Made by a program: the position numbers and the translations under genes. Source: a virus (lineage: Duplodnaviria > Caudoviricetes). Taken from it: DNA of 64,000 bases. The stretch is from positions 2,549 through 66,548 of IMG/VR virus record IMGVR_UViG_3300028886_003672; one strand, given 5' to 3'. Shown piece by piece: positions 45,251-63,349 of the stretch. Position 1 is the first letter of the stretch; each line of letters starts with the position of its first letter. A model generated the notes under the pieces. It ran no database searches. It was not told the DNA's origin and saw only the letters and a list, made by a program, of their open reading frames with translations.

Positions 45251-45895
45251 ATGGAAAAGGAGAAGATGCTGTCCGTCGGCCGGGATCCGGAGACCTTCCT
45301 GAACAAGGGGATCCGGCTGCACTGCGACAAGGTGATCGACCGGAACGCCTATGTGGGCTTCCGGAAGGTCGGCTCCAGCGGCCTGTGCAACAATCCCAAC
45401 GTCACCCGCTCCTCGGCGGGGACCGGCGTCGGCGGGCAGACGACCTGGCGCAGCAAGACCCCGGACGAAATCCTGGACGACATCAACACCGCGATCTCCG
45501 CGGTATGGGCCGCGAACGACTGCTCCTCCGACGCGCTGCCGAACCATATCCTGATTCCTGTGGAACAGTTCGGCATGCTGGTGACGAGGAAGGTATCGGA
45601 CGACTCCGAACGGTCCATCCTGACGTATGTGCTGGAGAACAACATCGCGACCCGCCAGGGACGCGAGCTGATCATCTCCCCGTGCAAATGGTGCGGCGGC
45701 ATCGGGACGGATTCCTCCGACCGGATGGTCGTCTACCAGAACCAGGTGGACCGGGTCTGCTTCAACCTGACCCAACCCCTGCGCCGGATGGAGACGGAAT
45801 ACGCGGAGATGCGCATCAAGATCCCGTACATCGCGCAGTTCTCCGAAGTGCGGTTTCTGTATCCTTCGACTATAAGATACATGGACGGAATCTGA
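45251..45895 (+). pseudogene. DUF2184-family major capsid protein, N-terminally truncated
   Basis: GLCNNPNV, WRSKTPDEILDDIN, PNHILIP, SILTYVLENN, YMDGI* match the C-terminal two-thirds of the family; in-frame stop 15 nt upstream of the ATG. Confidence 0.75.
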
Positions 45896-45908
45896 GGAGG
45901 GAGAAAAC

Positions 45909-46220
45909 ATGCGTATACTGTCCCGCGTCTGCGCCGAGTTCCATGACAAAACCGGCGCAGTGCTTTTTACAGTTCATCCTGCCGACCGGTGCGTCTTCCT
46001 GGACGCTCCGGACAGCATCCGGCAGGATCCGCTGTTCCATATGCTGCTGAACGATGGCTCCCTGGAACTTCCGACAACGAGGGAGAAACAGAAGCAGCTG
46101 GAAAACGACCCGATGAAAAAAACCGGAAAGACGGGAAGCGCGAAGGAAGAGCCGGCAGAAACGGCTGAAATGCCCGCGCCGAAGGAAGCGGACGCTTCCG
46201 GCGCGAAGGCGAAGAAATGA
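45909..46220 (+). CDS. phage head-region hypothetical protein
   Basis: Post-capsid position; AP..I..DPLF..L..DGS motif. Confidence 0.6.
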   Translation: MRILSRVCAEFHDKTGAVLFTVHPADRCVFLDAPDSIRQDPLFHMLLNDGSLELPTTREKQKQLENDPMKKTGKTGSAKEEPAETAEMPAPKEADASGAKAKK

Positions 46221-46627
46221 GCGCGTTGACTCCCGAGTCTTTCCTGGCTTTTTATCCCCGGTTCTCCTTCTTTTCCCGGGGCGTTGTCCTGCCCGAGTAC
46301 ATCCGGCAGGCCAACGCCCGATTCGGGGATTTCGGGGAGGACACGGAGGAGGCAAGGCGGCTATTCACGGCGCATCAGCTGACACTGTATGCGGTCGGAA
46401 TGCCGCCCGGGGATGCTGAACCCGCACCGGCGGCGATTGCAGCTGCCGGCCGCGGCGCAACGCAGCAGGTTTCCTCCAAAAAGGTCGGGGAGGTTTCCGT
46501 AACCTATGCGGAGACCTCCCCGGGTGATTCCGTTTCCACCGGACTGGGTGACCTGAAGGAAACCGTGTACGGGCGGCAACTGCTGAGCCTGATCCGGATC
46601 CATGGCTTTGCACGATATATATCATGA
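46217..46627 (+). CDS. DUF4054-family head-tail adaptor
   Basis: FLAFYPRF, LFTAHQLTL, SKKVGEVSVTY, TVYGRQL. Confidence 0.8.
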   Translation: MSALTPESFLAFYPRFSFFSRGVVLPEYIRQANARFGDFGEDTEEARRLFTAHQLTLYAVGMPPGDAEPAPAAIAAAGRGATQQVSSKKVGEVSVTYAETSPGDSVSTGLGDLKETVYGRQLLSLIRIHGFARYIS

Positions 46628-46657
46628 TTGACGTTCATTCTTGCATGATGTTATACT
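46628..46657 (+). promoter_or_regulatory. promoter of the inserted membrane-protein gene
   Basis: TTGACG-18 bp-TATACT with TG extension. Confidence 0.6.
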
Positions 46658-46702
46658 TTCTTCAAAAGACAATAAAATTTCATATTGAAGGGAGTGCTTT
46701 TT

Positions 46703-47260
46703 GTGCAGGAAAAGGTTGCAGCATTTATTAGCAAATATGAGGATGAACAGAAAAAAAAGGAAGCAAAGTACCGTGAAGAAGTAATTTCTGCAGCAGGGCT
46801 TATTTCTGATGAGGCGGATTTCGTGGAAACGACTTTAGCAGATTACAATACATGGCATTATAACAATCCATCAATGTGCAAAATAGAAGACGGTAAGTAT
46901 TATGTTAAAAAAACTATGCCACTAAGTCTCACAGAAGAAGAATTTGCAGCTGTGGAAAATGCTATGCCAAGAGATAAGCTGACTGAAATTAGGGCAAAGA
47001 TTGATGGCATATCCACCGAAAAAGAAGGGAAAAGCTGGGCAGGAGGATTCCTGACGGTTATTGCAGGGATTCTTTGGATTGGAGGATTAATTATCGCGAT
47101 TCTCGGGGCAAATGTAGAAAATGGTTGGCGTACAGAATTCAACTTCGAAATATTTATGTCGATTTTCATTATTTATTTCATAAGCGGTTGCTTTGCGCTA
47201 TGTGCAGCAGAACTGTTCAAGAAGCTTCAAGAAATCATAAATCTCCTGAAAAGGAAATGA
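46703..47260 (+). CDS. inserted AT-rich membrane protein (2 C-terminal TM helices)
   Basis: Hydrophobic segments GFLTVIAGILWIGGLIIAILG and IFMSIFIIYFISGCFAL; composition contrasts with neighbours. Confidence 0.75.
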   Translation: MQEKVAAFISKYEDEQKKKEAKYREEVISAAGLISDEADFVETTLADYNTWHYNNPSMCKIEDGKYYVKKTMPLSLTEEEFAAVENAMPRDKLTEIRAKIDGISTEKEGKSWAGGFLTVIAGILWIGGLIIAILGANVENGWRTEFNFEIFMSIFIIYFISGCFALCAAELFKKLQEIINLLKRK

Positions 47261-47338: not shown

Positions 47339-47770
47339 ATGAACGTAAAAGTCGGTCTGCCCGCGTCCGCGGGAGACCGGCTTCGTTTCATTCTCGCTGT
47401 GCAGGAGCACGGCTCACCGATGATGCGCATCCCGTCCCGGCCGGTCATCCGGCCCGCGCTGGCGAAGCCGGAGACCCGGTCCGCCATGGCCGCGGAAATG
47501 AAGAAGGTCGTGCAGGCCGCCTGGGAAGGGAACGACGACGCGGCCCGAAGCGCCCTGGAGGCTGCCGGACAGGCCGGCGCGGACGGGATCCGGGCGTATA
47601 TCGACGCCGGGATCCCGCCGCCCAACAGCCCGGCCACGGTAAACGGCGGGTGGATCTATAACCGGGCGGCGAAGAAAGGCGTGTATATCCCCGGAAAGGG
47701 ATTCAACAAGCCCCTGTTCGACACAGGGGCTTTGTATAAAGCGTTTGATTATGAGATTGAGGGCGGGTAA
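47339..47770 (+). CDS. neck/tail-completion protein (true start probably upstream)
   Basis: VKVGLP, AVQEHGSP...IPSRPVIRP, PPNSPATV, KPLFDTG. Confidence 0.75.
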   Translation: MNVKVGLPASAGDRLRFILAVQEHGSPMMRIPSRPVIRPALAKPETRSAMAAEMKKVVQAAWEGNDDAARSALEAAGQAGADGIRAYIDAGIPPPNSPATVNGGWIYNRAAKKGVYIPGKGFNKPLFDTGALYKAFDYEIEGG

Positions 47771-47824
47771 TCAATGACTGCCGGCGGCGGATATTACGTC
47801 GATTAAAGCTGTTGCCGGTTGAAT

Positions 47825-48346
47825 TCAGATATGCTTTTCAAGCAGCACAAGATCAATTCCGGGGATACCGTTAAAATCCGTCGGGACAATCGATATCTCC
47901 TGATATCCAAGCTGGCGGTACATTCTCCGGGCAGCCTGGTTTTTTGCGTTTGTATCGATTCTCAGCTCCGGCCATCCGTGTTCAGCCGCGTACTGTTCAT
48001 AAAAGCGCACAAAGGCTGTTCCGTATCCTTTGCCGGCGGCGTACGGGGAAATGACCAGGGTATGGAGGACGCAGACCTGATCACCAGGCACACTGTGTTT
48101 CCACGGAGCGCTGTGATATACATCGACCTGGATCTGATTGATGAGTGCGGTTCCCAGAATACAGCCGCCGTCCTCCAGGACAAAAAGATCCCCCCGTTCC
48201 AGCGCTTTTTCAGCTGTTTCCCGAACCGGATAGATCTTCCTGATCCATCCGGTTGTACATTTTCCTTCTTCTTCGGCGGTATGGATTTCATCATAAATCC
48301 GGACAACGCTGTTCAGATCTGTCCCGGCTGCTTTTCTGATCGTCAT
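47825..48346 (-). CDS. GNAT acetyltransferase (inserted, antisense)
   Basis: LVISPYAAGKGYG, LRIDTNAKNQAARRMYRQLGY; own TGaTATAAT -10 at 48398-48390. Confidence 0.9.
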   Translation of the reverse strand: MTIRKAAGTDLNSVVRIYDEIHTAEEEGKCTTGWIRKIYPVRETAEKALERGDLFVLEDGGCILGTALINQIQVDVYHSAPWKHSVPGDQVCVLHTLVISPYAAGKGYGTAFVRFYEQYAAEHGWPELRIDTNAKNQAARRMYRQLGYQEISIVPTDFNGIPGIDLVLLEKHI

Positions 48347-48426
48347 AACAGGATCCTGCTTTCTTCCGGGTCGTTTCCCGGTACTTTTGATTATATCAGA
48401 TACCCTCGAAAAGGAGCAGTTTTTTC

Positions 48427-48789
48427 ATGGATATTTCTGCGGTTCTGACAGATCCTGAACTGGGCTTTACCGCCTTCTCCGTGCTGCGGACAACATACCG
48501 CCTGCAGGACGGGATTCCGGTTCCATCGGAGGAGACGCTGCCGGCATCCGGTTGTGTCCATCCCGGGACTCCGGAGATGGTCCAGCTGCTGCCGGAGGAG
48601 GAACGGCATGAGGAGTTCATTTCGGTTTATACTGACTTTGCCCTGAACCTCGGGGAAAACGGCGGGGGAGAAACGTATAGCACGCCGGACCGGATCCTCT
48701 GGAACGGGGAGACCTGGCGAGTGGTACGGGTTCGGGACTGGTCCATGTTCGGGTATCATCAGGGGCTGGCGGTGAAGATGCATGAATGA
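48427..48789 (+). CDS. head-closure/adaptor protein
   Basis: MDISAVLTDPELG..F.V.R, DRILWNGETWRV; synteny. Confidence 0.7.
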   Translation: MDISAVLTDPELGFTAFSVLRTTYRLQDGIPVPSEETLPASGCVHPGTPEMVQLLPEEERHEEFISVYTDFALNLGENGGGETYSTPDRILWNGETWRVVRVRDWSMFGYHQGLAVKMHE

Positions 48790-49324
48790 AACGATCTACC
48801 GGGCACTCTGCGCCTGCTTGGGGCTGCAGTCTTCCTCCATGCAGGCGCCTGTCCTGATCCGCGAAGCGTACCGTGAACCGGAGAACGCGCCCCGGCCGCC
48901 CCGGAGCGCGGATGTGGTTTATTACTCCATTGCGCCGGATCCCGCCGCCCGGGAAGCGCCTCCTGCATATATGGAGGAGAATGCTTTCCGGGATTCCCAT
49001 ATTCCGGCGGTTTCTCTCTTTTCCGCATGGACCCTGACTGTGGTCTGCTACGGTCCGCATGCCCTCAGCAACGCCCGGAAGATCCGGGCCTTCCTGTATG
49101 TGGATGGTCCGGGATTCCCGCGGAGCATATTGCGAAAAGCCGGGATCCGGCCGGTGCCGGACCCGCCGGAACCGATGCTGCTGCATGAGCCGGAAGGATC
49201 CCTCTGGCGGACGCGGGCAGACCTGACGGTCTCCCTGCGTGCGGAGGAAAAGGAAACGCACCCCGTGCAAAGGGGTGCGGTCTCTGTTCCACCTGTGATA
49301 AGTATCAGTACAGATGAGCGTTAG
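48782..49324 (+). CDS. neck/tail terminator protein
   Basis: VVCYGP.A..NA..IR, W..RADLTV; sits before the sheath gene. Confidence 0.65.
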   Translation: MNETIYRALCACLGLQSSSMQAPVLIREAYREPENAPRPPRSADVVYYSIAPDPAAREAPPAYMEENAFRDSHIPAVSLFSAWTLTVVCYGPHALSNARKIRAFLYVDGPGFPRSILRKAGIRPVPDPPEPMLLHEPEGSLWRTRADLTVSLRAEEKETHPVQRGAVSVPPVISISTDER

Positions 49325-49731
49325 GATTTAAGAGCGCCCTTGAAACTTCCACAATTTATACATGCCTTTGATGTGAAAGGGTTAACTTTTCCACAACTTG
49401 GACAGGTCCAGAAATTCTTTGGCTTGACATTGACAATTCGAGCAGGAGCTGGCTTTTCTTTATGCTCGTTTTCAAGCAAGGAACGTATTTGTTGGTTGTC
49501 TTCTACAAGCTGGCCAAATCCATACAGGACAACAGATAAAATCCAGGAAGCAACAGAACCGATGATCATAATAAGAAGGCCTGTGATGAGCGCGGTGGTT
49601 TGCTCAACTGAGCTATAGGAGTTGGAAGCTGCCATCATCAGAATAATACCATAGATTACTGATGCGATGATGCCAACCCAGCATACAACTTTTGCTAGGG
49701 ATTTAATCTTTGCTCCAACGTTATTGAACAT
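49321..49731 (-). CDS. inserted membrane protein with C-terminal zinc ribbon (antisense)
   Basis: NVGAKIKSLA..two TM helices..GFGQLVE; CPSCG...CINCG. Confidence 0.8.
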   Translation of the reverse strand: MFNNVGAKIKSLAKVVCWVGIIASVIYGIILMMAASNSYSSVEQTTALITGLLIMIIGSVASWILSVVLYGFGQLVEDNQQIRSLLENEHKEKPAPARIVNVKPKNFWTCPSCGKVNPFTSKACINCGSFKGALKS

Positions 49732-49829: not shown

Positions 49830-50945
49830 ATGCTTTCCATCAATACCATTGCTCGCGTTTTGGTTAATGTCCAGCGTTCCGCAACGCAGCCAACTTCCTT
49901 TGATACCGGCCTGCTGCTGGTAAAGGATGATTCCTTTGCCGCTTCCAGGCGCCTGAAGTCCTATGCCAGTTCCGCGGAAGCGGCCGCCGGGCTGACCGCG
50001 GACGGCTTTGACGATTCCACGGAAGCATACAAGGCCGCGCAGAAATACTTCGCGGCTTCCCCGGCGCCCGGGCGGCTGCTGGTGTCCTGCTATCCGGCGG
50101 CCGAGAGCCCGGTGCAGGCACTGGACGCCGTGCTGGAAAGGACGCCGGATTTCTACGGTGTTGCCCTGGCGGACGCCCGGACGGACGCGGAACTGCTGGC
50201 GCTGGATACGCACATCGCCGGACTGGAGAAGCCGGCGATGCTGTTCCTGGCGCTGACGGGGACGCCCGCGGAGGTGACGGCGGCCGACAGCTTGCTGGAT
50301 CAACTTCATACCGCCGGCTCCCGGCGGGTGATTGCCGTCTGTGCTTCCGCACTGTCGGACGCGGCGGCGGTGATGGGCACGGCCATGGGCCTGCAGGCGG
50401 CGCATGCCGCTTCCGCCTTCTCCCTGTGCTACAAACCCGTCGGGGGCATGCAGCCGTCCTCCCTGACGCAGGATCAGGCGGACGCCATTCAGGCACTGGG
50501 CGGAAATGTGTATGTGACCCGGGGATATTCCCATATCCTGCTGGAAAAAGGAAGCACCCCGTCGGGCTGGCGCTACGACGAGGTGCTGTACCTGGATATG
50601 ATCGCCGAGGATCTGCAGAACGCGGCGGTCTCCCTGCTGGCGGAGAACCCGGACCGGCTGCCGCAGACGGATGACGCGTCCGCGCAGTTCATGAACGCGT
50701 TCAGTTCAGTGCTGATAGGCTATACGAACCGGGGGATCCTGGCCACGGCCCCATGGAGGGGTTCCGCCGTCGGCTGCTTCTCCGCCGGGGACTATATCGA
50801 GAACGGGTTTGCCCTGTGGGCGGACAGCTACGACAACCAGAGCGAAGCGGACCGGGCGGCACACAGGGCGGTCCCGATCCAGTGCGCACTGACATTGGCG
50901 GGCAGCTTGGAATCCGTTGTGATTACGGTGAACGTGCGGGTATAA
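49830..50945 (+). CDS. contractile tail sheath protein (DUF3383 family)
   Basis: I..VLVNV, YKAAQKYF..SPAP, FSLCYK..GG, YDEVLYLD, PQTD, GSLESV.I.VNV. Confidence 0.88.
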   Translation: MLSINTIARVLVNVQRSATQPTSFDTGLLLVKDDSFAASRRLKSYASSAEAAAGLTADGFDDSTEAYKAAQKYFAASPAPGRLLVSCYPAAESPVQALDAVLERTPDFYGVALADARTDAELLALDTHIAGLEKPAMLFLALTGTPAEVTAADSLLDQLHTAGSRRVIAVCASALSDAAAVMGTAMGLQAAHAASAFSLCYKPVGGMQPSSLTQDQADAIQALGGNVYVTRGYSHILLEKGSTPSGWRYDEVLYLDMIAEDLQNAAVSLLAENPDRLPQTDDASAQFMNAFSSVLIGYTNRGILATAPWRGSAVGCFSAGDYIENGFALWADSYDNQSEADRAAHRAVPIQCALTLAGSLESVVITVNVRV

Positions 50946-50982: not shown

Positions 50983-51291
50983 TCAGCATTTTTCCCTGCA
51001 ATGTTCGGCTATCCATTCATTCAACAATTTTCGCGGGATGAGAATTTTCTTTCCAATGCGAAGCGTTGGAAAATCTGCCCGGTGTATCAGTTGGTAAGCA
51101 GATGTTCGAGAAATGGATAATTCATCAGCTAGATCATTGATGGTAAGCGTCTGCTTTTGAGGTTGCCCTTCGCTGTGCGGGAGAAAGGTTATAACTGGTG
51201 CGCTTTCTTCTTCGGCAAGTCTGTCTGCCAGGTCGAGAAGTTGACGGGCTATAGAGTTAAGTTCCTTTGCTATTTCCTGATTTTTCCCCAT
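50983..51291 (-). CDS. excisionase-type (HTH_17) DNA-binding protein (inserted, antisense)
   Basis: LTINDLADELSISRTSAYQLI...FPTLRIGKKILIPR..L.EW. Confidence 0.8.
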   Translation of the reverse strand: MGKNQEIAKELNSIARQLLDLADRLAEEESAPVITFLPHSEGQPQKQTLTINDLADELSISRTSAYQLIHRADFPTLRIGKKILIPRKLLNEWIAEHCREKC

Positions 51292-51394: not shown

Positions 51395-51829
51395 ATGGCG
51401 TATAACGTTTACTCTCTCCCGGACTGCCGGACGGTGCTGTACCATCCGGATGTGGGCACGGCGAACCTGCATCAGTGCGGCCACGGAAAAATCACGGTCT
51501 CCGCGGCGGGGGACCTGACGTCCCATACCATGACCGCGGACGGGTATGTGGTGGTGAACCGGCTGAAGAGTACCAGCGGGACGGTCACCATCGAGGTCCC
51601 GCAGAATTCGGTCGGGGACTGGTTCCTGCGCCGGTGGGCAAGGTGGCAGAAAAACAGTAAGGATCCCTCGCGCATCGCGCTCGGGACCCTGACGATCCAG
51701 GACTCAGCCGGAGGTTTTTCCATTGTCTGCACCGGGGTGACGCTGCAGAAGGTGCCGGACCGGGTGTTTGACCGGACGGCCACCAACCTAGTCTATACCC
51801 TGCTGGCCGCGACGATTGCGGAGCAATGA
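51395..51829 (+). CDS. tail tube protein (DUF3277-like)
   Basis: YNVYSL.D, G.ITVS, SGTVTIEVPQNS, KVPDR.F. Confidence 0.8.
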   Translation: MAYNVYSLPDCRTVLYHPDVGTANLHQCGHGKITVSAAGDLTSHTMTADGYVVVNRLKSTSGTVTIEVPQNSVGDWFLRRWARWQKNSKDPSRIALGTLTIQDSAGGFSIVCTGVTLQKVPDRVFDRTATNLVYTLLAATIAEQ

Positions 51830-51966: not shown

Positions 51967-52794
51967 TCAATTGAACAAACTCGACTTCAGATCGATCCAC
52001 ATGGCTGGCCGAATCATACTATATATACGATCATAGTCTAGCTCAGCCCGGGAACCATCATAATCTACATTCATAGCAGAGTTGTGATATTCTCCAGGAG
52101 AACGGAGCCACCACATTCCTGCTTCTTTATTATCGAGATTTTGATATGGTTCGTATCCATGCCAGGCGTTGTGTTCAATTGCATAATCTGTTGGAGCGCA
52201 CATACGACTAATATTGTTGGCAAAGTACAGATCGTAAGCTTCGTGGTAACTCAATAAAAACAAGTGATCTTCTGTATCATTGCTACTGGTTGCATTATAG
52301 TACATATATCCTTGGATATCTGCATTGCTCACATATGACAATAGAATGGCATTTTTCTCTTTTTCCGTAAAAGCCATATCAAAGAATAATTCGTTAAGCC
52401 ATTTTCTGATCATGCTATCTTCCCAAGTTATGTCTTTTTCTGTAAAGGGATTAAAGGCCATAGCATCTAGACCATACCGGCTGATTAATAAGCTTTTTTC
52501 TCCTTTTGTATCAAGGACTATCCATTCGATCATTTCTTTGCCGTTATCTTCATCAGTGTCTTGTTCATATGAACCGAAGGAAACTATATTTCCTATTTTC
52601 TTGAAAGGAGTTGAGTCGATTTTTTTCTGTGATTCACTATCACGATTAACATTGCGCTTTATTAATTCCGCCTGTATTTTTTCTATTTCTGCTAATAACT
52701 CATCATCAGTCAGCGAAGAGTAATCTACGGCATGTGAAAAAATTGGAATACAAATAATTATACAAACAAGCATGTAAATCAGGGGCTTTTTCAT
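51967..52794 (-). CDS. secreted DUF6273-like protein (inserted, antisense, AT-rich)
   Basis: Signal peptide; FGSYEQD, IEWIVL, SLLISRYGLD, W..S.IRKWLN..F, LFLLS, WWLRSPG, IRPAMWI. Confidence 0.8.
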   Translation of the reverse strand: MKKPLIYMLVCIIICIPIFSHAVDYSSLTDDELLAEIEKIQAELIKRNVNRDSESQKKIDSTPFKKIGNIVSFGSYEQDTDEDNGKEMIEWIVLDTKGEKSLLISRYGLDAMAFNPFTEKDITWEDSMIRKWLNELFFDMAFTEKEKNAILLSYVSNADIQGYMYYNATSSNDTEDHLFLLSYHEAYDLYFANNISRMCAPTDYAIEHNAWHGYEPYQNLDNKEAGMWWLRSPGEYHNSAMNVDYDGSRAELDYDRIYSMIRPAMWIDLKSSLFN

Positions 52795-52880
52795 TAGTAT
52801 TAGTTCCTCCTTCTGATTTGATCACAGTTTACTTTTATTAATTATACCATATCCGAAGAAAAAGATATATGAGGTGCCGT

Positions 52881-53273
52881 ATGCGTGAAATTGAAAAAAC
52901 CATTTCCATCCCCGTGGACGGAAAGCCCTCAGACTTTCGGCTGACGAAGCTGGACGCCTTTTCCGGAGCGTCCTTGCTGCGGATGCTGTCCGGGATGCCG
53001 AAGGATCCTGGGGATGATTCCGTCATGGGTTTCATCACTTCTCTTTCCGAAACGGATCTCCGGTCTCTCATGATCACCTGTCTGCAGCACTGCGAAGTGC
53101 TGCTGCCGGCAGGCTGGATGCCGGTGATGACCCGGGGAGAATGGACATATCCGGAGCTGGAGCATGATACCGCGGTCTGCCTGAAGCTGACGATCGAGGA
53201 GGTGCTCTGGACGCTGGAAGGTTTTTTCGGCGGGGGAGGCTCGACCTCCCTGCCAGAGATCCCGGGTTCGTGA
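52881..53273 (+). CDS. tail assembly chaperone
   Basis: After the tube gene; ends LEGFFGG at a slippery T-run. Confidence 0.75.
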   Translation: MREIEKTISIPVDGKPSDFRLTKLDAFSGASLLRMLSGMPKDPGDDSVMGFITSLSETDLRSLMITCLQHCEVLLPAGWMPVMTRGEWTYPELEHDTAVCLKLTIEEVLWTLEGFFGGGGSTSLPEIPGS

Positions 53274-55253: not shown

Positions 55254-56004
55254 TCGCCGGCTCACGGTCCTTGCGGACGGTGAGCCTTTTGCTTCAGAAA
55301 ATCGCTTTCGTTTATCCGGAACGATGCGGATCGGATTGTTTCCGTCCCTGTTTATGCTACAGTGCTGGAATCTGTCTGATCCGGACGTATTCCGGCTGCA
55401 GAATACGAAGGAACTATCCGTCATGCGGGATGATTCCTGTTTGGCCTATGGACAGGTGTCGGATGTGTTCTGCCGGACGGTTCCGGAGGGAACGGTCACA
55501 ACGGCAGCTTTCTCCCTTGGACTGGGCTTATGGGAGGCTTCTGTATCCGTATCGGTTCCGGCCGGAGCTACCGTTTCGGAGACCGTGCGCAGGCTGCTTT
55601 CCGCTTCCGGTACCGGGATCCAGTTGCTGTCCTTCCCCGGAACCGACCCTGTCTTTTCCCGGGGGCAGGCCTTCTGCGACCGGGCGGCGGACGCGATTGC
55701 CGCTGTGATGTCTGCTGCATCCGCGCGTGCTTATCTGGTTCCGGCCGGCTTATGCGTGATCCCGGCGGAGCCTCTGCCGGCAACGCTGCACCTGACGGAT
55801 CGGGACCTGACGGACCGTCCCGCTTTTGCGGACGGTGGACGGAAGATGATCCTGTCCACGACGGTGACGGGGTTCCAGCCGGGGGAAGAGATGACCCTGG
55901 CCTGGGAAGGGAAGATGTATTCCGGCCTGATCCTGGAACGGATGGTAGAAGCGGATACGGCGATGGGACCATGGAGTACCCAGATGCTCATCGAATTGCA
56001 TTGA
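55240..56004 (+). CDS. baseplate hub (gp27-like)
   Basis: LQCWNLS, AYGQVSDV; synteny before the spike gene. Confidence 0.6.
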   Translation: MGEPDRRLTVLADGEPFASENRFRLSGTMRIGLFPSLFMLQCWNLSDPDVFRLQNTKELSVMRDDSCLAYGQVSDVFCRTVPEGTVTTAAFSLGLGLWEASVSVSVPAGATVSETVRRLLSASGTGIQLLSFPGTDPVFSRGQAFCDRAADAIAAVMSAASARAYLVPAGLCVIPAEPLPATLHLTDRDLTDRPAFADGGRKMILSTTVTGFQPGEEMTLAWEGKMYSGLILERMVEADTAMGPWSTQMLIELH

Positions 56005-56016
56005 GGAGGTTTTTTG

Positions 56017-56883
56017 ATGTCAGAGGTCATGTATCTTTCTCCGGAAGAACGGGAAGCACTGAAGCAGGAGGTCTTTTCCTCCCTGCACTGCGCCTTACCG
56101 GGCACGGTAGTTTCCTTTGATCCTTCCACCCAGACAGCTGAGATTCAACCGGCTGTAAAGATCGGGTCCCGGATGTTTCCGGTGCTGCCGGATGTGCCGG
56201 TTTTTTTCCCGGGCTCCAGGGAGAACGCGATTACCTGGCTGGTATCCGCCGGGGACGAATGCCTGGTGATCCTGGCGGACGTGGATATCGACGCCTGGTT
56301 TGAAAGCGGTGAAGCCTCTGTGCCACAGTCGGCGCGAAAGCATTCCCTGTCAGATGCGTTTGCCTTTGTGGGCTTCCGCAGCCGGCCGAACTCGCTGGAC
56401 ACGTTCCCGGAACAGGCGTCCCTTTTTCCGCATGATCACGATGACCGGTACTATACGGAAACGGAGACGGATGAAAAACTGGCAAGGAAATCCGATGCGG
56501 ATCATGTTCATGATGCCGGGGATATTACATCCGGTACGCTGCCTGTGGCCCGGGGCGGGACAGGAAATACCGGGACCGGATCGACCACGACGATTCAAAG
56601 TATCGCCACGGCGGCAGCGGACTGCGAGATCACCACGGCGCAGTACGCGTACTGGGGGAAAATGGCTATGGTCCGCCTGGTGGTGAAGAAAACCGGCGCA
56701 GTCACCTCCGGGACAACGACGCTGTGCACCCTGGCTGCGGGGAAACGGCCGAAGTATACGGCGCCGGCACAGTGGCGCTGGAACAACGGCGGGCAGATCA
56801 CGACCGCAGGCGCAGTACAGGTGAACGGCGCAATTCCTGCCAATACGTCTATCACGATATACGCGACGTATATCCTGGCATAA
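56017..56883 (+). CDS. Gp138-family central spike with fused fibre-like C-terminus
   Basis: LHCALPGTVVSFD, LPDVPVFFP, GDECLVILAD.DID.WF, RKHSLSDAFA; then HDHDDRYYTE and SGTLPVARGGTG. Confidence 0.85.
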   Translation: MSEVMYLSPEEREALKQEVFSSLHCALPGTVVSFDPSTQTAEIQPAVKIGSRMFPVLPDVPVFFPGSRENAITWLVSAGDECLVILADVDIDAWFESGEASVPQSARKHSLSDAFAFVGFRSRPNSLDTFPEQASLFPHDHDDRYYTETETDEKLARKSDADHVHDAGDITSGTLPVARGGTGNTGTGSTTTIQSIATAAADCEITTAQYAYWGKMAMVRLVVKKTGAVTSGTTTLCTLAAGKRPKYTAPAQWRWNNGGQITTAGAVQVNGAIPANTSITIYATYILA

Positions 56884-56978: not shown

Positions 56979-57341
56979 ATAACACTTCGTTCTGTGGATT
57001 CATCCGGAGATGTTCTGCCTGTGCTGTCTTCCCGGGATATGATCTCCGGCCCGGAGGCTGCAGCGCAGCTGGTTCAGTACCGGCTGTCCCTGCTGCAGGG
57101 GAAATGGTGGGAATATCCGGAAGATGGGTTTTTCATTCTGGAGGAGATGCGGTCGGGCCGGATCACGGATGCGGACGCGGCTTCGCTGGCTTCCCGGATC
57201 ACTGCTTATATCCGGGAGACGGACAGTGTGCAGGATGTGGAGAATGTAAGGTTTTCAACAGATCGAAGAAGGTTTTCCTATTCCTGCGAAATAAGGACCG
57301 GGGAGGGGAAGAAGGACATTGTATTTTCCGCCGTATATTGA
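56979..57341 (+). CDS. baseplate wedge protein (gp25/W-like), apparent ATA start
   Basis: LRSVDSSGD, RLSLLQGKWW motif; GGGAGG 8 nt before ATA 56979. Confidence 0.65.
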   Translation: MTLRSVDSSGDVLPVLSSRDMISGPEAAAQLVQYRLSLLQGKWWEYPEDGFFILEEMRSGRITDADAASLASRITAYIRETDSVQDVENVRFSTDRRRFSYSCEIRTGEGKKDIVFSAVY

Positions 57342-58224
57342 CGCTTCCGGGATCCATATGCCGACGTATGAGGACCGGCTGCAGGATTTATGCTCCGCCT
57401 ACCGCCTGATCTTTGGCCAGGAAGCGGAACTTACACCGGAGGTGCCGGATTACCAGCTGCTTTCTGTTTTTGCGAAGGCGCTGGACGATACGTCCGCGCT
57501 GGTGCTGCAGGCATACAACAGCCGGAACCCGGCGTATGCCGCCGGCCAGGCGCTGGATCTGCTGCTGCCGCAGTACGGCATTACGCGGCAGGCGGGAGAA
57601 ACAGACGCGGAGGTGAGGAAACGGATGAACGCGGCGACAGCCGCCAGGGGGTCTTTTTCCATGGACGCAATGGAAGCGGCTATCCGGCAGGTGCCGGGGG
57701 TAACGCAGGTCCTGATCCGCGTGAATGAAGAAGATACCGAAGTGGACGGGATCCCGGGGCACACGATCGCGGTCTATGTGAATAACGGCGATCTGGATCT
57801 GATCGCGGACGCCATTTGGAGGAAGAAGCCGCCGGGCATCGGGACGTCCGGAACGAAAAGCCGGACAGTCACGGATGAACGGGGGAATCTTCATACAGTC
57901 CGGCTTTCCAGACCAGTGCCGGTCGGGATCGGCTTCCTGGTTATGCTTCGGAACTATGACGGGTTTGACGAAGCGGCTGTGACAGCAATGATCAAGGAGA
58001 CTCTTTACAATTATACCAATGCGCTGGAAATCGGGGCTTCAATTACTGTTCCGCAGCTGTACGGCCTGATCTACCAGGCGGTAGGTGGTTATGCATCTAC
58101 CTTCGCCATTACGGATCTGGCCTGTACCGGAGCGCATGGCGCGGAACGGGAAAAACTGGTGCCCGAATGGAACACGAAGCTGACGGTGCCGTCCCTGGAT
58201 GATGTGGCGGTGATGGTGGACTGA
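57319..58224 (+). CDS. baseplate J-like protein
   Basis: PYIDASGIHMPTY, PDYQL, A.GQALD, GIPGHTIAVYV, IA.AIW.KKPPG. Confidence 0.88.
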   Translation: MYFPPYIDASGIHMPTYEDRLQDLCSAYRLIFGQEAELTPEVPDYQLLSVFAKALDDTSALVLQAYNSRNPAYAAGQALDLLLPQYGITRQAGETDAEVRKRMNAATAARGSFSMDAMEAAIRQVPGVTQVLIRVNEEDTEVDGIPGHTIAVYVNNGDLDLIADAIWRKKPPGIGTSGTKSRTVTDERGNLHTVRLSRPVPVGIGFLVMLRNYDGFDEAAVTAMIKETLYNYTNALEIGASITVPQLYGLIYQAVGGYASTFAITDLACTGAHGAEREKLVPEWNTKLTVPSLDDVAVMVD

Positions 58225-58649
58225 TGAATCCGGCTGATTATCTTTCCCTGTTTCCTGCATATGCCCGTAATAAGCCTCGGTTCGTCGCGCTCGCGGAAGC
58301 AGTGCTCCGGCAGGTGACAGATCTGATGTCCCTGGTGCCGCAGACGGCATCCGGGTTTTCTTTTGCCTCAGCGGAGGGGAAACAGCTTGATGAACTGGGA
58401 ACGTCCATCGGGTTTATCCGACAGGAAGGCTGGGACGATGAAACCTATCGCAGAGTATTGCTGAAGAAGCTGAAGCTGTTCACCTGGAACGGGACGAACG
58501 AAAGGACTTTTGACTTCGTGGAGGAAAGGGAAACCTTTGTTGATAACGGTGACGGGACGGTGACGGCGCGGACAGACGTGCCGCTGCCGGCCGGAGAAAT
58601 AATGCCTGTGCCGATGGGCATAAAGGTTGTGGAACCGGGGGAGGAGTGA
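58224..58649 (+). CDS. DUF2612-family baseplate wedge protein
   Basis: YLSLFP, AEGKQLDELG..IG, DDETYR.VL..K...WNGT. Confidence 0.8.
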   Translation: MNPADYLSLFPAYARNKPRFVALAEAVLRQVTDLMSLVPQTASGFSFASAEGKQLDELGTSIGFIRQEGWDDETYRRVLLKKLKLFTWNGTNERTFDFVEERETFVDNGDGTVTARTDVPLPAGEIMPVPMGIKVVEPGEE

Positions 58650-58650
58650 C

Positions 58651-58792
58651 GGAACGTCGGGGACGGTTCTGCGGTTCCGCGTTCGCGGAACGGAGAGAAC
58701 CGTCCCCTTGTTCCCGCGCGTTCGCGGAACGGAGAGAACCGTCCCCTTGTTCCCGCGCGTTCGCGGAACGGAGAGAACCGTCCCCTTGTTCC
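58651..58792. repeat. 64-bp REP-like element, copy 2, with its right arm amplified as 3 tandem 39-bp units
   Basis: Unit CGCGTTCGCGGAACGGAGAGAACCGTCCCCTTGTTCCCG at 58678, 58717 and 58756 (last copy 37 bp). Confidence 0.9.
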
Positions 58793-58827
58793 GCTGCTGG
58801 CAGTGACCGGAAAGGAGAAAAGAAATC

Positions 58828-59646
58828 ATGATTGACGGAAAGAAACTGGGAATCGTCGGCTTTGAAAAGCTCGGGACTCCATATACAGAGATGGATTGCC
58901 AGGCGTTCATTGAGTGGTGTCTCTGGCAGTGCGGACTGAAGAAAGACCTGGCCGGGAGTAATGCCTGGTACCGGGAAGTGCTGAAGAACGGTACCATGAT
59001 GACGCCGGAAGAGTGTGTGAAACAGTTAGGGAAGGTTCCTGCGGGTGCCTTCCTTTTCATTCATGCATTCGACGGCGGGGAAGAGAAACGGGGATACCAT
59101 GATGGACTGGGAAATGCCAGCCATATAGGGATCGTCACAGGAAAAGGCGAAGGGGCAATCCATTCGTCCTCCTCCCGGGGGTGCGTGGCGGAGAGCAGCT
59201 TCCGGGGGAAGAGCATCCGCGGCGGATGGAACCGGGTGGGACTGTGGAACCAGGTGAGGTATGAGTATGGGGATGAAGGGGAAGCGGAACGGGGAGAGAA
59301 CCGTATCCGCAATCTCAATCGTCGCGACTCCCCACAGGGGAGCTCGCTCGTTTCGATTGACCTCACCACCGACGAAACTCCCGCCACTGGCGGTCATCAG
59401 TGGTTCGCCCTTTGTTCCGCGTCGTCTTGTTCTGCTGTGCTGCGGAAAGGAGACCGGGGAGAAGCTGTGCGGGAGATGCAGGAAGCGCTGATGAACAGGG
59501 GTTATGACCTGGGCAAATGGGGCGCAGACGGGATCTTCGGGAAGCAGACGCTGAAGGCGGTGAAAGCGTTCCAGAGGGACTGCGGACTGAAGGTTGATGG
59601 CATCTGCGGACCGCTGACATTCGGAAAACTATACGGGGAGGGATGA
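58828..59646 (+). CDS. endolysin: NlpC/P60-like domain plus PG_binding_1, with palindromic insert in the linker
   Basis: DCQAF, GSNAWYR, SHIGIV, IHSSS; LRKGDRGEAVREMQ..L, DGIFG..T..AVKAFQ. Confidence 0.85.
   Translation: MIDGKKLGIVGFEKLGTPYTEMDCQAFIEWCLWQCGLKKDLAGSNAWYREVLKNGTMMTPEECVKQLGKVPAGAFLFIHAFDGGEEKRGYHDGLGNASHIGIVTGKGEGAIHSSSSRGCVAESSFRGKSIRGGWNRVGLWNQVRYEYGDEGEAERGENRIRNLNRRDSPQGSSLVSIDLTTDETPATGGHQWFALCSASSCSAVLRKGDRGEAVREMQEALMNRGYDLGKWGADGIFGKQTLKAVKAFQRDCGLKVDGICGPLTFGKLYGEG
59284..59418. repeat. REP-like right arm split by a 103-bp second palindromic element, inside the lysin ORF
   Basis: GCGGAACGGGGAGAGAACCGT | 59305-59407 | CCCTTTGTTCC. Confidence 0.65.
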
Positions 59647-59870
59647 GAGTGGATTGGGCAACGATCCTGGTTGCGGTGATCACGGCGGGATTCGCGTTCC
59701 TGGGCGTGTACGTGAGCAACCGGAAACAGGCAGCGCTGGTGGCATACCGGCTGGAAAAACTGGAAGCCAAGGTGGACAAGCACAACAGCGTCGTCGAGCG
59801 GATGTACCGGCTGGAAAGCCGGATGGAAGTCATTGAAAAGGTACAGAAAGAAAGGAGCAATGCAAAATGA
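59643..59870 (+). CDS. small membrane protein (holin-like, 1 TM plus coiled coil)
   Basis: TILVAVITAGFAFLGV, YRLEKLEAKVDKHN. Confidence 0.7.
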   Translation: MRVDWATILVAVITAGFAFLGVYVSNRKQAALVAYRLEKLEAKVDKHNSVVERMYRLESRMEVIEKVQKERSNAK

Positions 59871-60082
59871 AAATCAACTGGAAGAACTGGGGTAAGGCGG
59901 CACTGATCCGGGCGGTACGGACCTTTGCGGAGGCGGCGCTGGCGTATATCGGAACGGGAGCAGTGGTGCTGGGCGACGTGAACTGGATGGCGACGCTGAG
60001 CGCGGGCTGCTTCGGGTTCCTGACGGCAATGCTGCTGGCACTGACGGGTTTGCCCGAAGCGGAAGCAGAGGGTGAAAAGTAA
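59867..60082 (+). CDS. holin (r1t-like)
   Basis: KAALIRAVRTFAEAALA, VNW...S, SLLT-like LLALTGLPE. Confidence 0.8.
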   Translation: MKINWKNWGKAALIRAVRTFAEAALAYIGTGAVVLGDVNWMATLSAGCFGFLTAMLLALTGLPEAEAEGEK

Positions 60083-60096
60083 AGCGGGGAAAAGAC

Positions 60097-60441
60097 ATGG
60101 AAGAAGAACAGCTGGACCAGCCGGAAGAAACCGGCGAAGAGGATCTGCCCGAAGCGGAGATGCTGGACGGGCTGGACGAGCTCGCCCGGGAGGAAGGCGG
60201 GGCGGAAGCGATGGACTGCCTGATGGAGGCCTGCGGAGAGCTGGTGCGGGAGATGAGCTCGGAGGAGCGGCGGCAGTACTGCGCGGACATGGAGGCGGCG
60301 AAGACCGAAGCCGGGCGGAAAGCGCTGGGCCGGGCCTTCAACGCGGTGGCGGGCGCGGGACGGAAGCGGGCGCCGGAGGGCCGCGAACTGGGAGAAAGGA
60401 TCATGGCGGAGCGTAGCGCGAACGCGGGCCGGAAAGAATGA
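60097..60441 (+). CDS. stand-alone acidic scaffold-like segment (resembles the C-terminus of DUF2213 head-maturation proteins)
   Basis: Acidic N-terminal half, AMD motif, ends ELGERIMAERSAN; no protease domain. Confidence 0.45.
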   Translation: MEEEQLDQPEETGEEDLPEAEMLDGLDELAREEGGAEAMDCLMEACGELVREMSSEERRQYCADMEAAKTEAGRKALGRAFNAVAGAGRKRAPEGRELGERIMAERSANAGRKE

Positions 60442-60457
60442 AAAAGGACGGATCAGG

Positions 60458-61786
60458 ATGAGGGAAAGGATCACGGGGCTGTTCATCCCGGCGGAGTGCC
60501 TGCCGGGGATGGACGGATACACCAACGCGGCGGCGGGGCTCGGGGAAGCGTCCCCGCTGACCGCCGCGGCGACCTTCGTGCGGAGCGGACTGAGCCGGGA
60601 CACCGAAAAGCTGACGGCGGCGTACCGGGGGAACTACATCGCGAAGCGGATCATCGACGGGCCCAGCGAGGACGCGACGCGGGAATGGTACACGCTGAGC
60701 GTGCCCTCGATGGGCGAGGAGGACCTGCGGCAGCTGAAAAAGCTGGAGGCGAAGCACAGCGTGAAGCAGGAGATCACGGACGCGATCCGGTGGGCCCGGC
60801 TGTACGGAGGGAGCATCGCCATCATGATCACGTACGGGGACCAGGACCGGATGGACACCCGGCTGGATCCGAAGCGCCTGCGGCCGGGATGCTTCATGGG
60901 GCTACTGGTGGTGGACATGACGCAGGAGATCACGCCGAGCCTGGAGATGGAGGACGACCTGGACGACCCGGAATACGGCCTGCCGGAATACTACGAGGTA
61001 TCCGTCGCCGGGAAGCAGGGGGAGAACCGGCGGATGAAGATCCACCATTCGCGGGTGCTGCGCTTCACGGGGCGGGAGCTGCCGCGGGAGGAGATGATCC
61101 GGAACGATTACTGGGGCGCGAGCGAACTGGAGCACGTATGGGACGCGCTGATCCGGCACGACTCCGGCAGCGAGAATACCGCCAGGATGACGTACATGAG
61201 CAACCTGGTGACGCTGAAGATGGGGAGCCTGGGGGCGGACCTGGCGTACGGATCGGACCGGACGAAGGAAAGCGCGATCCGCGCCGTGGAGGAAGAAAAC
61301 CGGCTGCGGAGCAGCTATGGTACGCAGCTGCTGAGCGAGGGGGACTCGATGGAGACCCACCCGTACAACTTCGGCGGGCTGGCGGAGATCCTGGATATCT
61401 TCATGATGGACGTGGCCGGGGCGGCGGAGATGCCGTGCACGAAGATCTTCGGGCGGTCGCCACAGGGGATGAACGCCACGGGACGGTCGGACGAGAAGAA
61501 CTACAGCGACATGGTGGGCCGTCTGCAGGAGCGGATCCTGCGCCCGGCACTGGAAAAGCTGCTGCCGGTGATGGCGGTGAGCTGCTGGGGAATGATCCCG
61601 GAGGACATGGAGATCCGCTTCAATCCCCTGGTGACGATGAGTCCGGGGGAGCGGGCGGAACTGGCCCGGCAGGCGGCAGAGGAGATCCGCATCCTGCTGG
61701 AATGCGGGGTGATCACGGCGGAAGAGGCGCGGGAAAAGATCAAAGCGCCGGAGACCGGCGGAAACGGCTGGGGGACGATCCTGTGA
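60458..61786 (+). CDS. portal protein (DUF1073 family)
   Basis: YRGNYIAKRIID, WARLYGGS, IHHSRVLRF, WGASEL, AGAAEMP.TKIFGRSPQGMNATG.SD..NY. Confidence 0.9.
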   Translation: MRERITGLFIPAECLPGMDGYTNAAAGLGEASPLTAAATFVRSGLSRDTEKLTAAYRGNYIAKRIIDGPSEDATREWYTLSVPSMGEEDLRQLKKLEAKHSVKQEITDAIRWARLYGGSIAIMITYGDQDRMDTRLDPKRLRPGCFMGLLVVDMTQEITPSLEMEDDLDDPEYGLPEYYEVSVAGKQGENRRMKIHHSRVLRFTGRELPREEMIRNDYWGASELEHVWDALIRHDSGSENTARMTYMSNLVTLKMGSLGADLAYGSDRTKESAIRAVEEENRLRSSYGTQLLSEGDSMETHPYNFGGLAEILDIFMMDVAGAAEMPCTKIFGRSPQGMNATGRSDEKNYSDMVGRLQERILRPALEKLLPVMAVSCWGMIPEDMEIRFNPLVTMSPGERAELARQAAEEIRILLECGVITAEEAREKIKAPETGGNGWGTIL

Positions 61787-63033
61787 AAGGGACGGGGAAG
61801 ATCATCCGGTGGTTCCTGGAGCATCCGGACGAGCTGGGGCGGCGGGTCGGATTCAAAGACCTGACGCCGATGCACGGAGAATGGATCCGGGAGATGGTGA
61901 ACGGGAGCGGGGACTACACCCTGCAGGCGCACCGGGGGAGCTACAAAAGCAGCTGCCTGGCGGTGGCGATCGCGATGCTGATCGTGCTGCGGCCGACAAA
62001 GAACATCATCTTTCTGCGGAAGACGGACAACGACGTGGCGGAGATGCTGGGGATGGTCGGAAAGATCCTGAGGCAGGAGATCATGGGCGACCTGGCGGCG
62101 ATGTGCTACGGGCGGCCGCTGATGATCACGGGAGAAAGCGCGAGCCACCTGAGCACGAACCTGTGGCAGAGCCCGATGGGCGCGCCGCAGCTGTTCGGCC
62201 TGGGGATCCGGAGCAGCATCACGGGGAAGCACGCGTGGTACGTGATCACGGACGACATCTGCAACAAGGACGACCGGGAGAGCCGGGCGGAACGGGAGCG
62301 GACGAAGACCCAGTACGACGAGCTGCAGAACATCCGGAACAAGGGCGGGCGGATCATCAACCTGGGGACACCGTGGCACAAGCAGGACGTCTTCACGAAG
62401 ATGCCCAACATCCACCGGTACGACTGCTACACGACGGGACTGATCACAAAGGAGCAGCTGGCGCAGCTGCGGCAGAGCATGGCGCCGAGCCTGTTCGCGG
62501 CGAACTACGAGCTGAAGCACATCGCGAGCACGGAGGTGATCTTCGACACGGCGCCGCGGTTCACGGACGACGCGGGGAAACTGCGGGACGGGCTGGCCCA
62601 CGTGGACGCGGCGTACGGCGGCGGGGACTGCACGGCGTTCACCTGCGGACGGCGGGACCGGGACGGGGAGACGATCTACCTGTACGGCAAGCTGTGGCAC
62701 AAGCCGGTGGACCGGGTGATCGGCGAGATCATCGACGAGAGCCGGCGGCTGATGTGCGAACCGATCAAATGCGAACGGAACGGCGACAGGGGATTCCTGG
62801 AGCGGGAGCTGCGGGAGCGCGGGGCATATGCCAGCGGATACGACGAGCGGATGAACAAGTTCGTCAAGATCGCGACGTACCTGAAGAAATGGTGGCCGAA
62901 GATCGTGTTCCTGGAAGGGACGGATCCGGAATATATCGATCAGATCCTGGACTACACGGAGAACGCGGAACACGACGACGCGCCGGACAGCGCGGCGTGC
63001 GTTTGCAGGATCCTGGAGCGCGGATATCACTGA
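61783..63033 (+). CDS. terL: terminase large subunit
   Basis: AHRGSYKS Walker A-like, VITDDI Walker B, GTPWH, HVDAAYGG and HDDAPD nuclease motifs; GTG start overlaps the portal stop. Confidence 0.85.
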   Translation: MKGTGKIIRWFLEHPDELGRRVGFKDLTPMHGEWIREMVNGSGDYTLQAHRGSYKSSCLAVAIAMLIVLRPTKNIIFLRKTDNDVAEMLGMVGKILRQEIMGDLAAMCYGRPLMITGESASHLSTNLWQSPMGAPQLFGLGIRSSITGKHAWYVITDDICNKDDRESRAERERTKTQYDELQNIRNKGGRIINLGTPWHKQDVFTKMPNIHRYDCYTTGLITKEQLAQLRQSMAPSLFAANYELKHIASTEVIFDTAPRFTDDAGKLRDGLAHVDAAYGGGDCTAFTCGRRDRDGETIYLYGKLWHKPVDRVIGEIIDESRRLMCEPIKCERNGDRGFLERELRERGAYASGYDERMNKFVKIATYLKKWWPKIVFLEGTDPEYIDQILDYTENAEHDDAPDSAACVCRILERGYH

Positions 63034-63049
63034 GAAAGGAGAGCGAGGC

Positions 63050-63349
63050 ATGAACAGGAACGATAAAAAGCAGGGAAACCGGATCCGGGAGCAGACGGGA
63101 CAGGAATACCTGGACCTGCTGCCCGGGGCGATGGACGCCCTGAAGGACATCATCGGCAATCCGGAGAGCAACCCGGCCGCCCGGGTGCAGGCGATCGGCC
63201 TGTTGATGGACCGCGGACTGGGGAAACCGGAGGAGACCATCCGGATCCGGCATATGGAGGACAACATGGAACAGGCGCAGGCGCGGATGGAAGAGATCTT
63301 CGCGCTGGTGCGGGAGAAAAAGGACGGGGAGCCGGGGGCGGAAGGCTGA
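63050..63349 (+). CDS. small protein, possibly terminase small subunit-like
   Basis: ARVQAIGLLMDRGLGKP motif; adjacent to terL. Confidence 0.4.
   Translation: MNRNDKKQGNRIREQTGQEYLDLLPGAMDALKDIIGNPESNPAARVQAIGLLMDRGLGKPEETIRIRHMEDNMEQAQARMEEIFALVREKKDGEPGAEG

Follow-up and report, generated by a model that had tools for sequence, protein, structure and literature searches.

The 64,000-nucleotide stretch analyzed here (the window) comprises bases 2549-66548 of a single 66,548-bp virus record (IMG/VR IMGVR_UViG_3300028886_003672), so that the end of the window is also the end of the record. Between 45.2 and 64.0 kb it carries what is probably the right-hand four-fifths of a phage-derived late-gene cluster, with a morphogenesis module of the myovirus type like that of Salmonella phage SEN34, and this part begins with a broken major capsid gene next to a putative mobile island. 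An earlier note on this DNA had read the cluster as a domesticated tail system, resembling a tailocin or a gene transfer agent (GTA), in a clostridial chromosome. The link to Clostridia stands, in that relatives of the cluster lie in metagenome-assembled genomes (MAGs) of rumen and gut Clostridia, from which a clostridial host seems probable; the chromosome does not, the source being a virus record. Protein families were called by Pfam and PHROG profile searches of the window proteins, which confirmed nearly every gene of the set and order previously listed on the plus strand, contractile tail, baseplate and lysis genes included. The cluster is genuine and largely intact, with phage-type tail, lysis and packaging genes, and belongs to a rumen Clostridia lineage that is little known.

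The major capsid gene is present as a 3′ half (DUF2184/PF09950; 45239-45895, plus strand), with a Pfam match at 45251-45895 that covers profile positions 40-251 only. Its frame opens at 45239 and is ~105 N-terminal residues short of the intact capsids of its relatives, whose heads are complete (scaffold, cement and a 320-341-amino acid (aa) capsid), and no capsid 5′ piece, scaffold gene or cement gene was found anywhere in this record. The segment at 45153-45243 (plus strand) contains TGCACCCC repeats and a hairpin (GGGGTGCAT..TTGTATCG) and was recognized from an alignment of four junctions as the right end of the island and its attR junction. The same alignment, together with a protein alignment against an intact capsid, places the crossover near 45239-45243, at the GF codons. 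In the protein alignment the 5′ half stops at ..AEYMSF and the 3′ half resumes at S/N-V/T-MEKEKM with zero residues lost, as in a simple insertion. A direct-repeat search around the island gave nothing useful.

Upstream of the junction lie two overlapping genes for large serine recombinases, here called SRa (399 aa; 35528-36727) and SRb (523 aa; 36712-38283), with Resolvase, Recombinase and Zn_ribbon_recom domains. They are preceded by genes for an HTH protein (34883-35308) and a SHOCT_2 protein (35200-35547), both assigned by Pfam, which are candidates for a regulator or directionality factor of the island; all four genes are on the plus strand. We take the SRa/SRb pair, from its domains and position, to be the putative recombination module of the capsid-splitting island. 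Window SRa is 67% and SRb 74% identical to the pairs that adjoin capsid 3′ halves in three related genomes (G014, G015 and G016), and homologs of the HTH and SHOCT proteins occupy the same place before SRa/SRb in G014 and G016. With a 720-aa enzyme at 27998-30160 (Pfam), the window holds three large serine recombinases, contrary to the earlier statement that it has no integrase; these are assigned to the inserted island and to a siphovirus structural half further upstream, not to the tail cluster. Between SRb and the junction is a 6.9-kb cargo segment of low GC content (0.42-0.46; 38284-45200, plus strand) with open reading frames (ORFs) of 206, 666, 100, 137, 205 and 284 aa, in which were also recognized a YpsA/SLOG-family protein (41525-42046; Pfam) and, just before the island end, an AAA/nSTAND-like ATPase (44037-45152). 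The 666-aa protein (39079-41079) has no family match. This segment is absent from the island copies of G014-G016, in which SRb ends ~120 bp before the capsid 3′ half, and a DNA search of G001-G005 with the 30-45 kb region returned scraps only. The low-GC segment (38399-45152), with its YpsA/SLOG and ATPase genes, may be defense-type cargo. A reading of the ATPase and the 666-aa protein as a Mu-like transposable phage was ruled out, there being no transposase domain.

A full-length capsid query was run against 31 related genomes. Capsid 3′ halves (residues ~101-321) were found in five of them (G006, G014, G015, G016 and G017) and 5′ halves (residues 3-128) in four (G014, G015, G016 and G017), the two halves lying on one contig in G014 and on separate contigs in G015, G016 and G017. 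The 3′ half directly follows SRb in G014, G015, G016 and G006, with SRa before SRb in three of these. In G015 a pair of serine recombinases (408 and 524 aa) directly precedes the 3′ half, the junction DNA is homologous to 45200-45300 of the window, and capsid homology starts at the same residue as in the window (PGFNIVEEEKM vs GFNVMEKEKM). The halves in G014 are 21.1 kb apart, in the order host purB/pyrG/glgB, terL2, portal, scaffold, cement, capsid 5′ half, island, capsid 3′ half, tail genes and lysin, and the island ends with the series HTH, SHOCT, SRa and SRb that occupies 34883-38283 of the window. A secondary deletion in G006 has fused a scaffold fragment to SRb. Two more capsid 3′ halves (G003:C57 and G020:C92) have their start right at a contig end, close to the break residue, which fits assembly breaks at a polymorphic insertion; G003:C57 was ruled out as a shared capsid truncation, the copy being cut by the contig end. 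The capsid of the window is 5′-truncated, as the earlier note had observed, but its view of the gene as eroded does not stand, since the same break recurs in at least five other genomes, directly after SRb in four of them.

Among G014, G015 and G016, SRb is 99.0-99.4% and SRa 95-98% identical, and the adjoining capsid halves are just 68-81% identical; the left island ends of G014 and G015 share 96% identity. Such near-identical recombinases beside diverged capsid halves point to a single island family having inserted recently, independently and site-specifically into target copies that are themselves diverged. The island cargo varies by genome, being an SMC-like ATPase with methylases, BlaI/BlaR1-like genes with a sigma factor, or a sugar ABC transporter. 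A scan with a degenerate motif of the island end returned 93 stretches, mostly chance matches, of which one is a further capsid junction, on metagenome contig L182, and two are island ends that adjoin non-capsid DNA (L163 and L178). On both of the latter the island right end, 98.7% identical to that of G014, is followed by homologs of the sensor genes that flank the cluster of G002:C18; these could be a secondary insertion site or a deletion of the cluster.

The arrangement suggests that the capsid gene was probably interrupted by an island at a conserved insertion site and not eroded. The island would have entered by site-specific recombination between the codons for ..AEYMSF and STMEKEKM.. 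of an intact capsid gene, and the scaffold, cement and capsid 5′ half would be expected beyond it, off the left end of the record, by analogy with G014, G015 and G016. With the island in place the cluster would make no capsids. Precise excision by SRa/SRb would be predicted to restore the capsid gene, both halves of which are kept in G014-G017, as with gene-intervening elements.

The nearest analogs of the island are the gene-intervening elements of sporulation genes and cassettes of the staphylococcal cassette chromosome (SCC) type. Gene-intervening elements excised by large serine recombinases include skin in sigK, SPbeta in spsM and gin in gerE (PMC4191935, PMC5595907, PMC5025042). Like these, the island has a large serine recombinase at the element end (in the window, with 6.9 kb of cargo before the junction), occupies a fixed site inside a coding sequence and, in G014-G017, leaves both gene halves in existence, and its insertion point is the same in independent genomes with divergent targets. 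It differs from them in that its target is a phage-type major capsid gene and not a sporulation gene, in having two recombinases, and in a cargo that varies (restriction-modification/ATPase genes, a BlaI/BlaR1-like pair, a sugar transporter); its near-identical recombinases across species also indicate an actively spreading island, and its excision is predicted from sequence. SCC elements (ccrA/ccrB) likewise have an adjacent pair of large serine recombinases, variable cargo, conserved ends and one insertion site, and one copy of the island carries BlaI/BlaR1-like regulators, but SCC targets the 3′ end of rlmH and the island the interior of a capsid gene; the likeness is one of organization only. 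As far as literature searches show, the capsid-targeting island is undescribed, and it is a more novel result than the question of domestication. If this interpretation is correct, a conserved site in a capsid gene serves as a landing pad for spreading islands that carry restriction-modification genes, a BlaI/BlaR1-like pair or sugar transport genes, which would be a new class of target for serine-recombinase elements and would let one mobile element directly turn another off and on.

The genes that follow the capsid 3′ half form a myovirus-type tail and baseplate series. The structural, lysis and packaging genes are all on the plus strand; the unrelated genes interleaved among them include three on the minus strand. 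A conserved 103-aa head-proximal gene (45909-46220) and a DUF4054 gene (46217-46627; Pfam), both syntenic in relatives, are followed by Neck1/tail completion (47339-47770; phrog_222, E 5e-30, aligning over its full length with relatives), a head-tail adaptor (48427-48789; phrog_939), a tail terminator (48782-49324; PF23961), a full-length DUF3383 tail sheath (49830-50945; Pfam) and a tail tube (51395-51829; PF11681). The sheath aligns over 99% of its length with those of SEN34 and Agathobaculum phages and is 57-82% identical to the MAG copies; a sheath search of IMG/VR gave distant relatives only (25-31% identity). A tail assembly chaperone (52869-53273; phrog_1688, PF21822) has a putative frameshift extension in an overlapping ORF (53270-53452, plus strand) with a T-run at 53222-53228; an ORF on the minus strand at 52838-53341 was rejected as an antisense shadow of the chaperone. 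The tape measure (53478-54359), which matches the C-terminal parts of tape measure PHROGs, precedes genes for a Dit-like protein (54384-54893), plug (54894-55253), hub (55240-56004), spike (56014-56883, with a spike N-domain match at 56014), wedge (56724/56964-57341, taken here from about 56964), a baseplate J-like protein (57319-58224) and DUF2612 (58224-58649). Baseplate gene lengths agree with those of the G001 copy. The lysis cassette consists of a lysin (58828-59646), a 75-aa coiled-coil protein (59643-59870) and an r1t-type holin (59867-60082). In the lysin a repeat-derived linker joins an NlpC/P60-like domain to a PG_binding_1 C-terminus; the N-terminal part contains NlpC/P60-type Cys and His motifs, the G001 homolog of the lysin matches PF00877, and a ~105-bp repeat (59306-59411) is read in frame as the linker.

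Five interleaved genes were distinguished in this series: two on the plus strand, for a 191-aa ORF (46685-47260; a moron, absent from the compact relatives L054 and C23) and a 209-aa ORF (47819-48448; with a 34% homolog near the G006 cluster), and the three on the minus strand, for a zinc-ribbon membrane protein (49321-49731), an excisionase/MerR-like HTH_17 protein (50983-51291) and a DUF6273 protein (51967-52794; with a homolog at another boundary of the related cluster L056). The 191-, 209-, 666- and 179-aa proteins of the window have no Pfam or PHROG match. Apart from the capsid gene, the 20-odd structural, lysis and packaging ORFs are full length in comparison with relatives.

The packaging block comprises, all on the plus strand, an acidic 114-aa protein (60097-60441) that resembles the C-terminal 70 residues of the scaffold, a portal (60458-61786; PF06381), terL (61783-63033), a terS-like 99-aa protein (63050-63349) and a conserved 179-aa protein (63461-64000) that a protein atlas places in unnamed viral clusters only. 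The terL product has no Pfam match and is 54% identical to the annotated terL of Enterococcus/Lactococcus phages; its true frame is the one given here, and that at 61809-63053 was rejected as a shadow ORF of Arg/Gly/Ala/Pro junk. Portal and terL are intact, as had been claimed. This five-gene block (60097-64000, 3.9 kb) recurs elsewhere as a ~3.8-4.2 kb unit with unrelated flanks and a terL 78-82% identical. It stands alone, one per genome, in L024, L025, L042, L043 (G002:C4), L044 (G001:C21) and L046 (G003:C19), and also in L045; its neighbors are type I restriction-modification genes in G001 and G002 and a 2467-aa gene before the block in G003, and elsewhere it makes up bare 4-kb contigs. 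At 0.61-0.66 the block is richer in GC than the tail genes (0.50-0.58), and a different packaging subtype accompanies the tail genes most closely related to those of the window (G004, sheath 81-82%), so that the window copy is a mosaic.

A terL search turned up close relatives among IMG/VR contigs as well as rumen Clostridia MAGs, with several to a genome, and mapping of the window proteins onto them delineated one lineage sharing neck, tail, baseplate and lysis genes. Three arrangements occur. In the first, u179, terS-like, terL, portal, scaffold, cement and capsid lead into the rest (e.g., G002 contigs 18 and 23, L029, L061), in some copies with an upstream primase-helicase; in the second, scaffold, cement, capsid, tail and lysis genes are followed by portal, terL and u179 (G001 contig 32, G004); in the third, a 75-aa protein and a different, T4-type terL precede portal, scaffold, cement, capsid, tail and lysis genes (G006, G007, G014, G015, G016). 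The tape measure of relatives is 231-281 aa, J ~300 aa and DUF2612 ~140-150 aa, and no fibre gene follows DUF2612 in any of the three arrangements; the interval from DUF2612 to the lysin is likewise free of one, both in the window and in relatives. A short tape measure (293 aa, not ~304), a missing fibre gene and interleaved unrelated genes had all been reported for this window, and rightly; as signs of erosion they fail, because relatives share them, and from this comparison they appear to be traits of the lineage and not decay of the window copy. The variable C-terminus of the spike may be the receptor-binding part. Tail length scales at ~0.15 nm per tape-measure residue, which would give a tail of roughly 35-45 nm.

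Seventeen of the ~21 genomes of one genus-level clade (PyrG 82-95% identical) have the cluster, and none of 10 outsiders does. Copies number 0 to ~8 per genome, many of them fragments; the flanks differ between genomes and the loci are non-syntenic. The ~22-kb cluster of G001:C32 lies between HepT/MNT pairs and surface-protein genes, and that of G014 has glgB immediately before it and purB and pyrG a little further out; a fixed chromosomal site beside pyrG was considered and is true of G014 only. The complete genome G007 has a single cluster (G007:C1:2075000-2134999, L077-L079), stretched to ~40 kb. Host-like genes on the minus strand (MurJ-like, ECF sigma and anti-sigma, lipoproteins, GNAT, XRE), ~20 kb in all, are wedged into it at no fewer than eight gene boundaries, yet every structural gene is full length; one of these inserts is common to G006. 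Sheath identity ranges from 42 to 99.7% and does not correlate with PyrG identity (Spearman 0.14). The 99.7% pair is formed by G003:C57 and G006:C6 (L129, L121), whose host PyrG are 84% identical, and reflects either recent transfer or one contig population mis-binned into two MAGs. Searches for tyrosine and serine integrases (PF00589, PF00239) found none on the G001 and G002 contigs that carry the cluster and, in G007, none for hundreds of kb around it; G014:C40 has one PF00589 (tyrosine recombinase) match ~13 kb beyond the terL2 end of its cluster. Replication genes were not recognized next to the clusters of G001, G007 and G014; a primase-helicase and an S24 repressor are present in some other copies, which look autonomous. 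Fixed position and congruence with core genes had been proposed as marks of domestication, and neither is seen; by the tests that the earlier note itself set the lineage looks mobile, with a variable copy number, non-syntenic loci and a mismatch of sheath and PyrG. It is nonetheless an odd lineage, short-tailed, fibreless, mostly with no integrase found, and full of foreign genes yet intact.

We consider a phage-derived late-gene cluster of this lineage, with its capsid gene split by a mobile island, to be the probable explanation of the locus as a whole. Several points weigh against it. The capsid 5′ half and the left island end lie outside the record, so that for this copy the insertion model is built from attR and from analogy with other genomes; the recombinases of the window are just 67-74% identical to the other pairs, and 6.9 kb separate SRb from the junction; excision and restoration of the capsid gene are themselves proposals, predicted from the gene arrangement; the cluster itself has no integrase or other means of mobility that we could find on the G001 and G002 cluster contigs or near G007; and an exact 42-mer across the holin/packaging junction (60082-60097) is absent from other metagenome and viral contigs, so that a misjoin there is possible.

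Of the alternatives, the one that survives best, as a minority possibility, is that the lineage is a host-retained particle system resembling GTAs or PBSX, of which the window copy has been switched off by the island. Like PBSX, tailocins (diffocin, R-pyocin) and GTAs (RcGTA, FpGTA), the clusters consist of structural and lysis genes in bacterial genomes, mostly without recognizable integration genes, and some of them are flanked by host genes. Those of G001 and G014 directly adjoin host-type genes and that of G007 sits in a complete genome. The full-length structural genes of G007 despite ~20 kb of wedged host-like genes, the lack of an integrase on the G001 contig or within hundreds of kb in G007, and the distribution over the clade and not beyond it are all as this reading would have it; islands, moreover, usually target stable host genes, and here a dedicated island family targets the capsid gene. 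GTA-like packaging has been reported in gut Ruminococcaceae, Oscillospiraceae and Christensenellaceae (PMC12946183), families neighboring the one considered here. On the other side, a conserved, vertically inherited locus is not what the copy number, the many fragments, the differing flanks, the sheath/PyrG correlation and the 99.7% pair describe; there are three packaging arrangements and two terL families, so modules have been swapped, and the copies with primase-helicase and S24 repressor look autonomous. In its protein families the lineage is distinct from PBSX, diffocin and FpGTA, the last of which, in Faecalibacterium, is podovirus-like with unrelated gene content (PMC12946183). The lineage is unlike tailocins in its portal, terL and, in relatives, full heads, and unlike known GTAs in copy number, location and horizontal transfer. 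The suggestion of a GTA-like ancestor thus keeps some force for the lineage (no integrase on the G001 and G002 contigs or near G007, intact G007 genes) and loses it on copy number, non-synteny and transfer. That the layout is not that of a described tailocin or GTA is borne out, the literature containing no description that we found of this cluster layout or of a capsid-targeting island. It would be sensible to seek GTA-like activity of rumen Clostridia in this lineage, such activity having just been reported for related gut families.

An elaboration of this, which we hold less probable again, would combine a domesticated GTA/PBSX-like lineage with a cargo-island family that uses the capsid gene as its dedicated att site, so that excision gates the production of particles and the ~20-kb islands may even ride in them; if true, it would be a parasite-within-domesticated-phage arrangement.

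Next comes an assembly artefact, in which the packaging block would have been misjoined to the tail cluster after the holin. Besides the missing 42-mer, GC jumps from 0.575 to 0.66 at ~60 kb, the block is found alone on 4-kb contigs and with unrelated flanks, and several contigs from other assemblies stop no more than tens of bases past the 179-aa gene, at the stop codon of which this record ends exactly. The order tail-lysis-portal-terL, however, also occurs in G001 (L057) and G004 (L067, L068), with a different packaging subtype; the junction has a tight 14-bp spacer with a ribosome-binding-like GGGGAAAAG motif; and no shared repeat was seen that would cause a misjoin. A misassembly at the holin-packaging junction is possible but is not indicated, and we regard it as unlikely.

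An ordinary decaying prophage, its capsid cut by random deletion or rearrangement beside unrelated mobile elements, is a poorer account still. The window is indeed a nest of mobile elements (the siphovirus half at 1-22 kb, three serine recombinases and the low-GC segment), related genomes hold many cluster fragments, and G006 has its secondary deletion, but at least five other genomes have the identical break, with homologous recombinases and junction DNA alongside, and the 20-odd remaining ORFs are full length. The argument that had been drawn from an intact tail beside an eroded head falls because, on the evidence of the junctions, a mobile element divides the capsid gene. As a caution for annotation, a capsid gene that is truncated next to intact tail genes is not necessarily a sign of domestication. 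We reject the R-type tailocin, a tail-only killing particle left after loss of the head genes: the intact tail, baseplate and lysis ORFs and the want of a complete capsid, scaffold or cement gene in the record speak for it, but the capsid break is a recurrent island insertion site, a capsid 3′ half and intact portal and terL (which tailocins lack) are retained, full head modules occur in relatives that share these tail genes, neither the window nor its relatives showed a fibre or receptor-binding gene, and no related cluster wholly without head genes was found. The selection for a tail-only particle proposed earlier is not supported.

The closest described relatives in gene order are SEN34 (Brunovirus) and the Agathobaculum phages AB434P2/P3, whose annotated genomes served as the reference for the module and which share with the lineage the families and order DUF1073 portal, DUF2213-type scaffold, cement, DUF2184 capsid, DUF4054, Neck1, adaptor and terminator, continuing with DUF3383 sheath, tube, chaperone, tape measure, Dit-like, plug, hub, spike, wedge, J and DUF2612. 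Sheath identity to them is 26-29% only, and their tape measures are longer (669 aa in SEN34 and 512 aa in AB434P3, against 293 aa in the window). Unlike these phages, the window cluster has no fibre or fibre-assembly genes and no integrase, repressor or replication module adjoining it, its packaging genes come after the lysis genes, and its capsid gene is split by an island.

Upstream, the siphovirus structural half (1-22 kb, cut by the record start) contains an HK97 capsid (96-1163), a 1743-aa tape measure, Tal and a lysin, and cargo with leucine-rich and ankyrin repeats lies between it and the 720-aa serine recombinase. This whole part (window 1-30160, with its repeat-protein cargo and its own recombinase) could lie nested within the insert in the capsid gene, or belong to that insert.

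Several smaller features were seen in the lineage. In G002:C23 (L074), at ~29780-31040 of the stretch 5000-44999, the tail tube gene is tandemly duplicated. The 36.5-kb viral contig L029 has three tandem ORFs (2585-6459) upstream of primase-like and packaging genes, the third with a tyrosine-recombinase-like N-terminus, read by eye without a family search, which would fit a recombinase-in-trio. In G015:C32 (reverse complement, ~16545-20511) a 458-bp segment with the coiled-coil and holin genes is present in two copies, 97% identical, on either side of a 3-kb insert that follows the lysis cassette. Copies of the ~105-bp lysin linker repeat, 76-87% identical, are intergenic in L052, L054, L056, L057, L069, L049, L030 and L061, resembling a miniature mobile repeat of the lineage. 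The window itself has two perfect tandem repeats, one at 58678-58792 (a 39-bp unit, 2.9 copies) between DUF2612 and the lysin and one at 63371-63412 (CCCCTGACAA, 4.2 copies) between the terS-like gene and the gene for the 179-aa protein.

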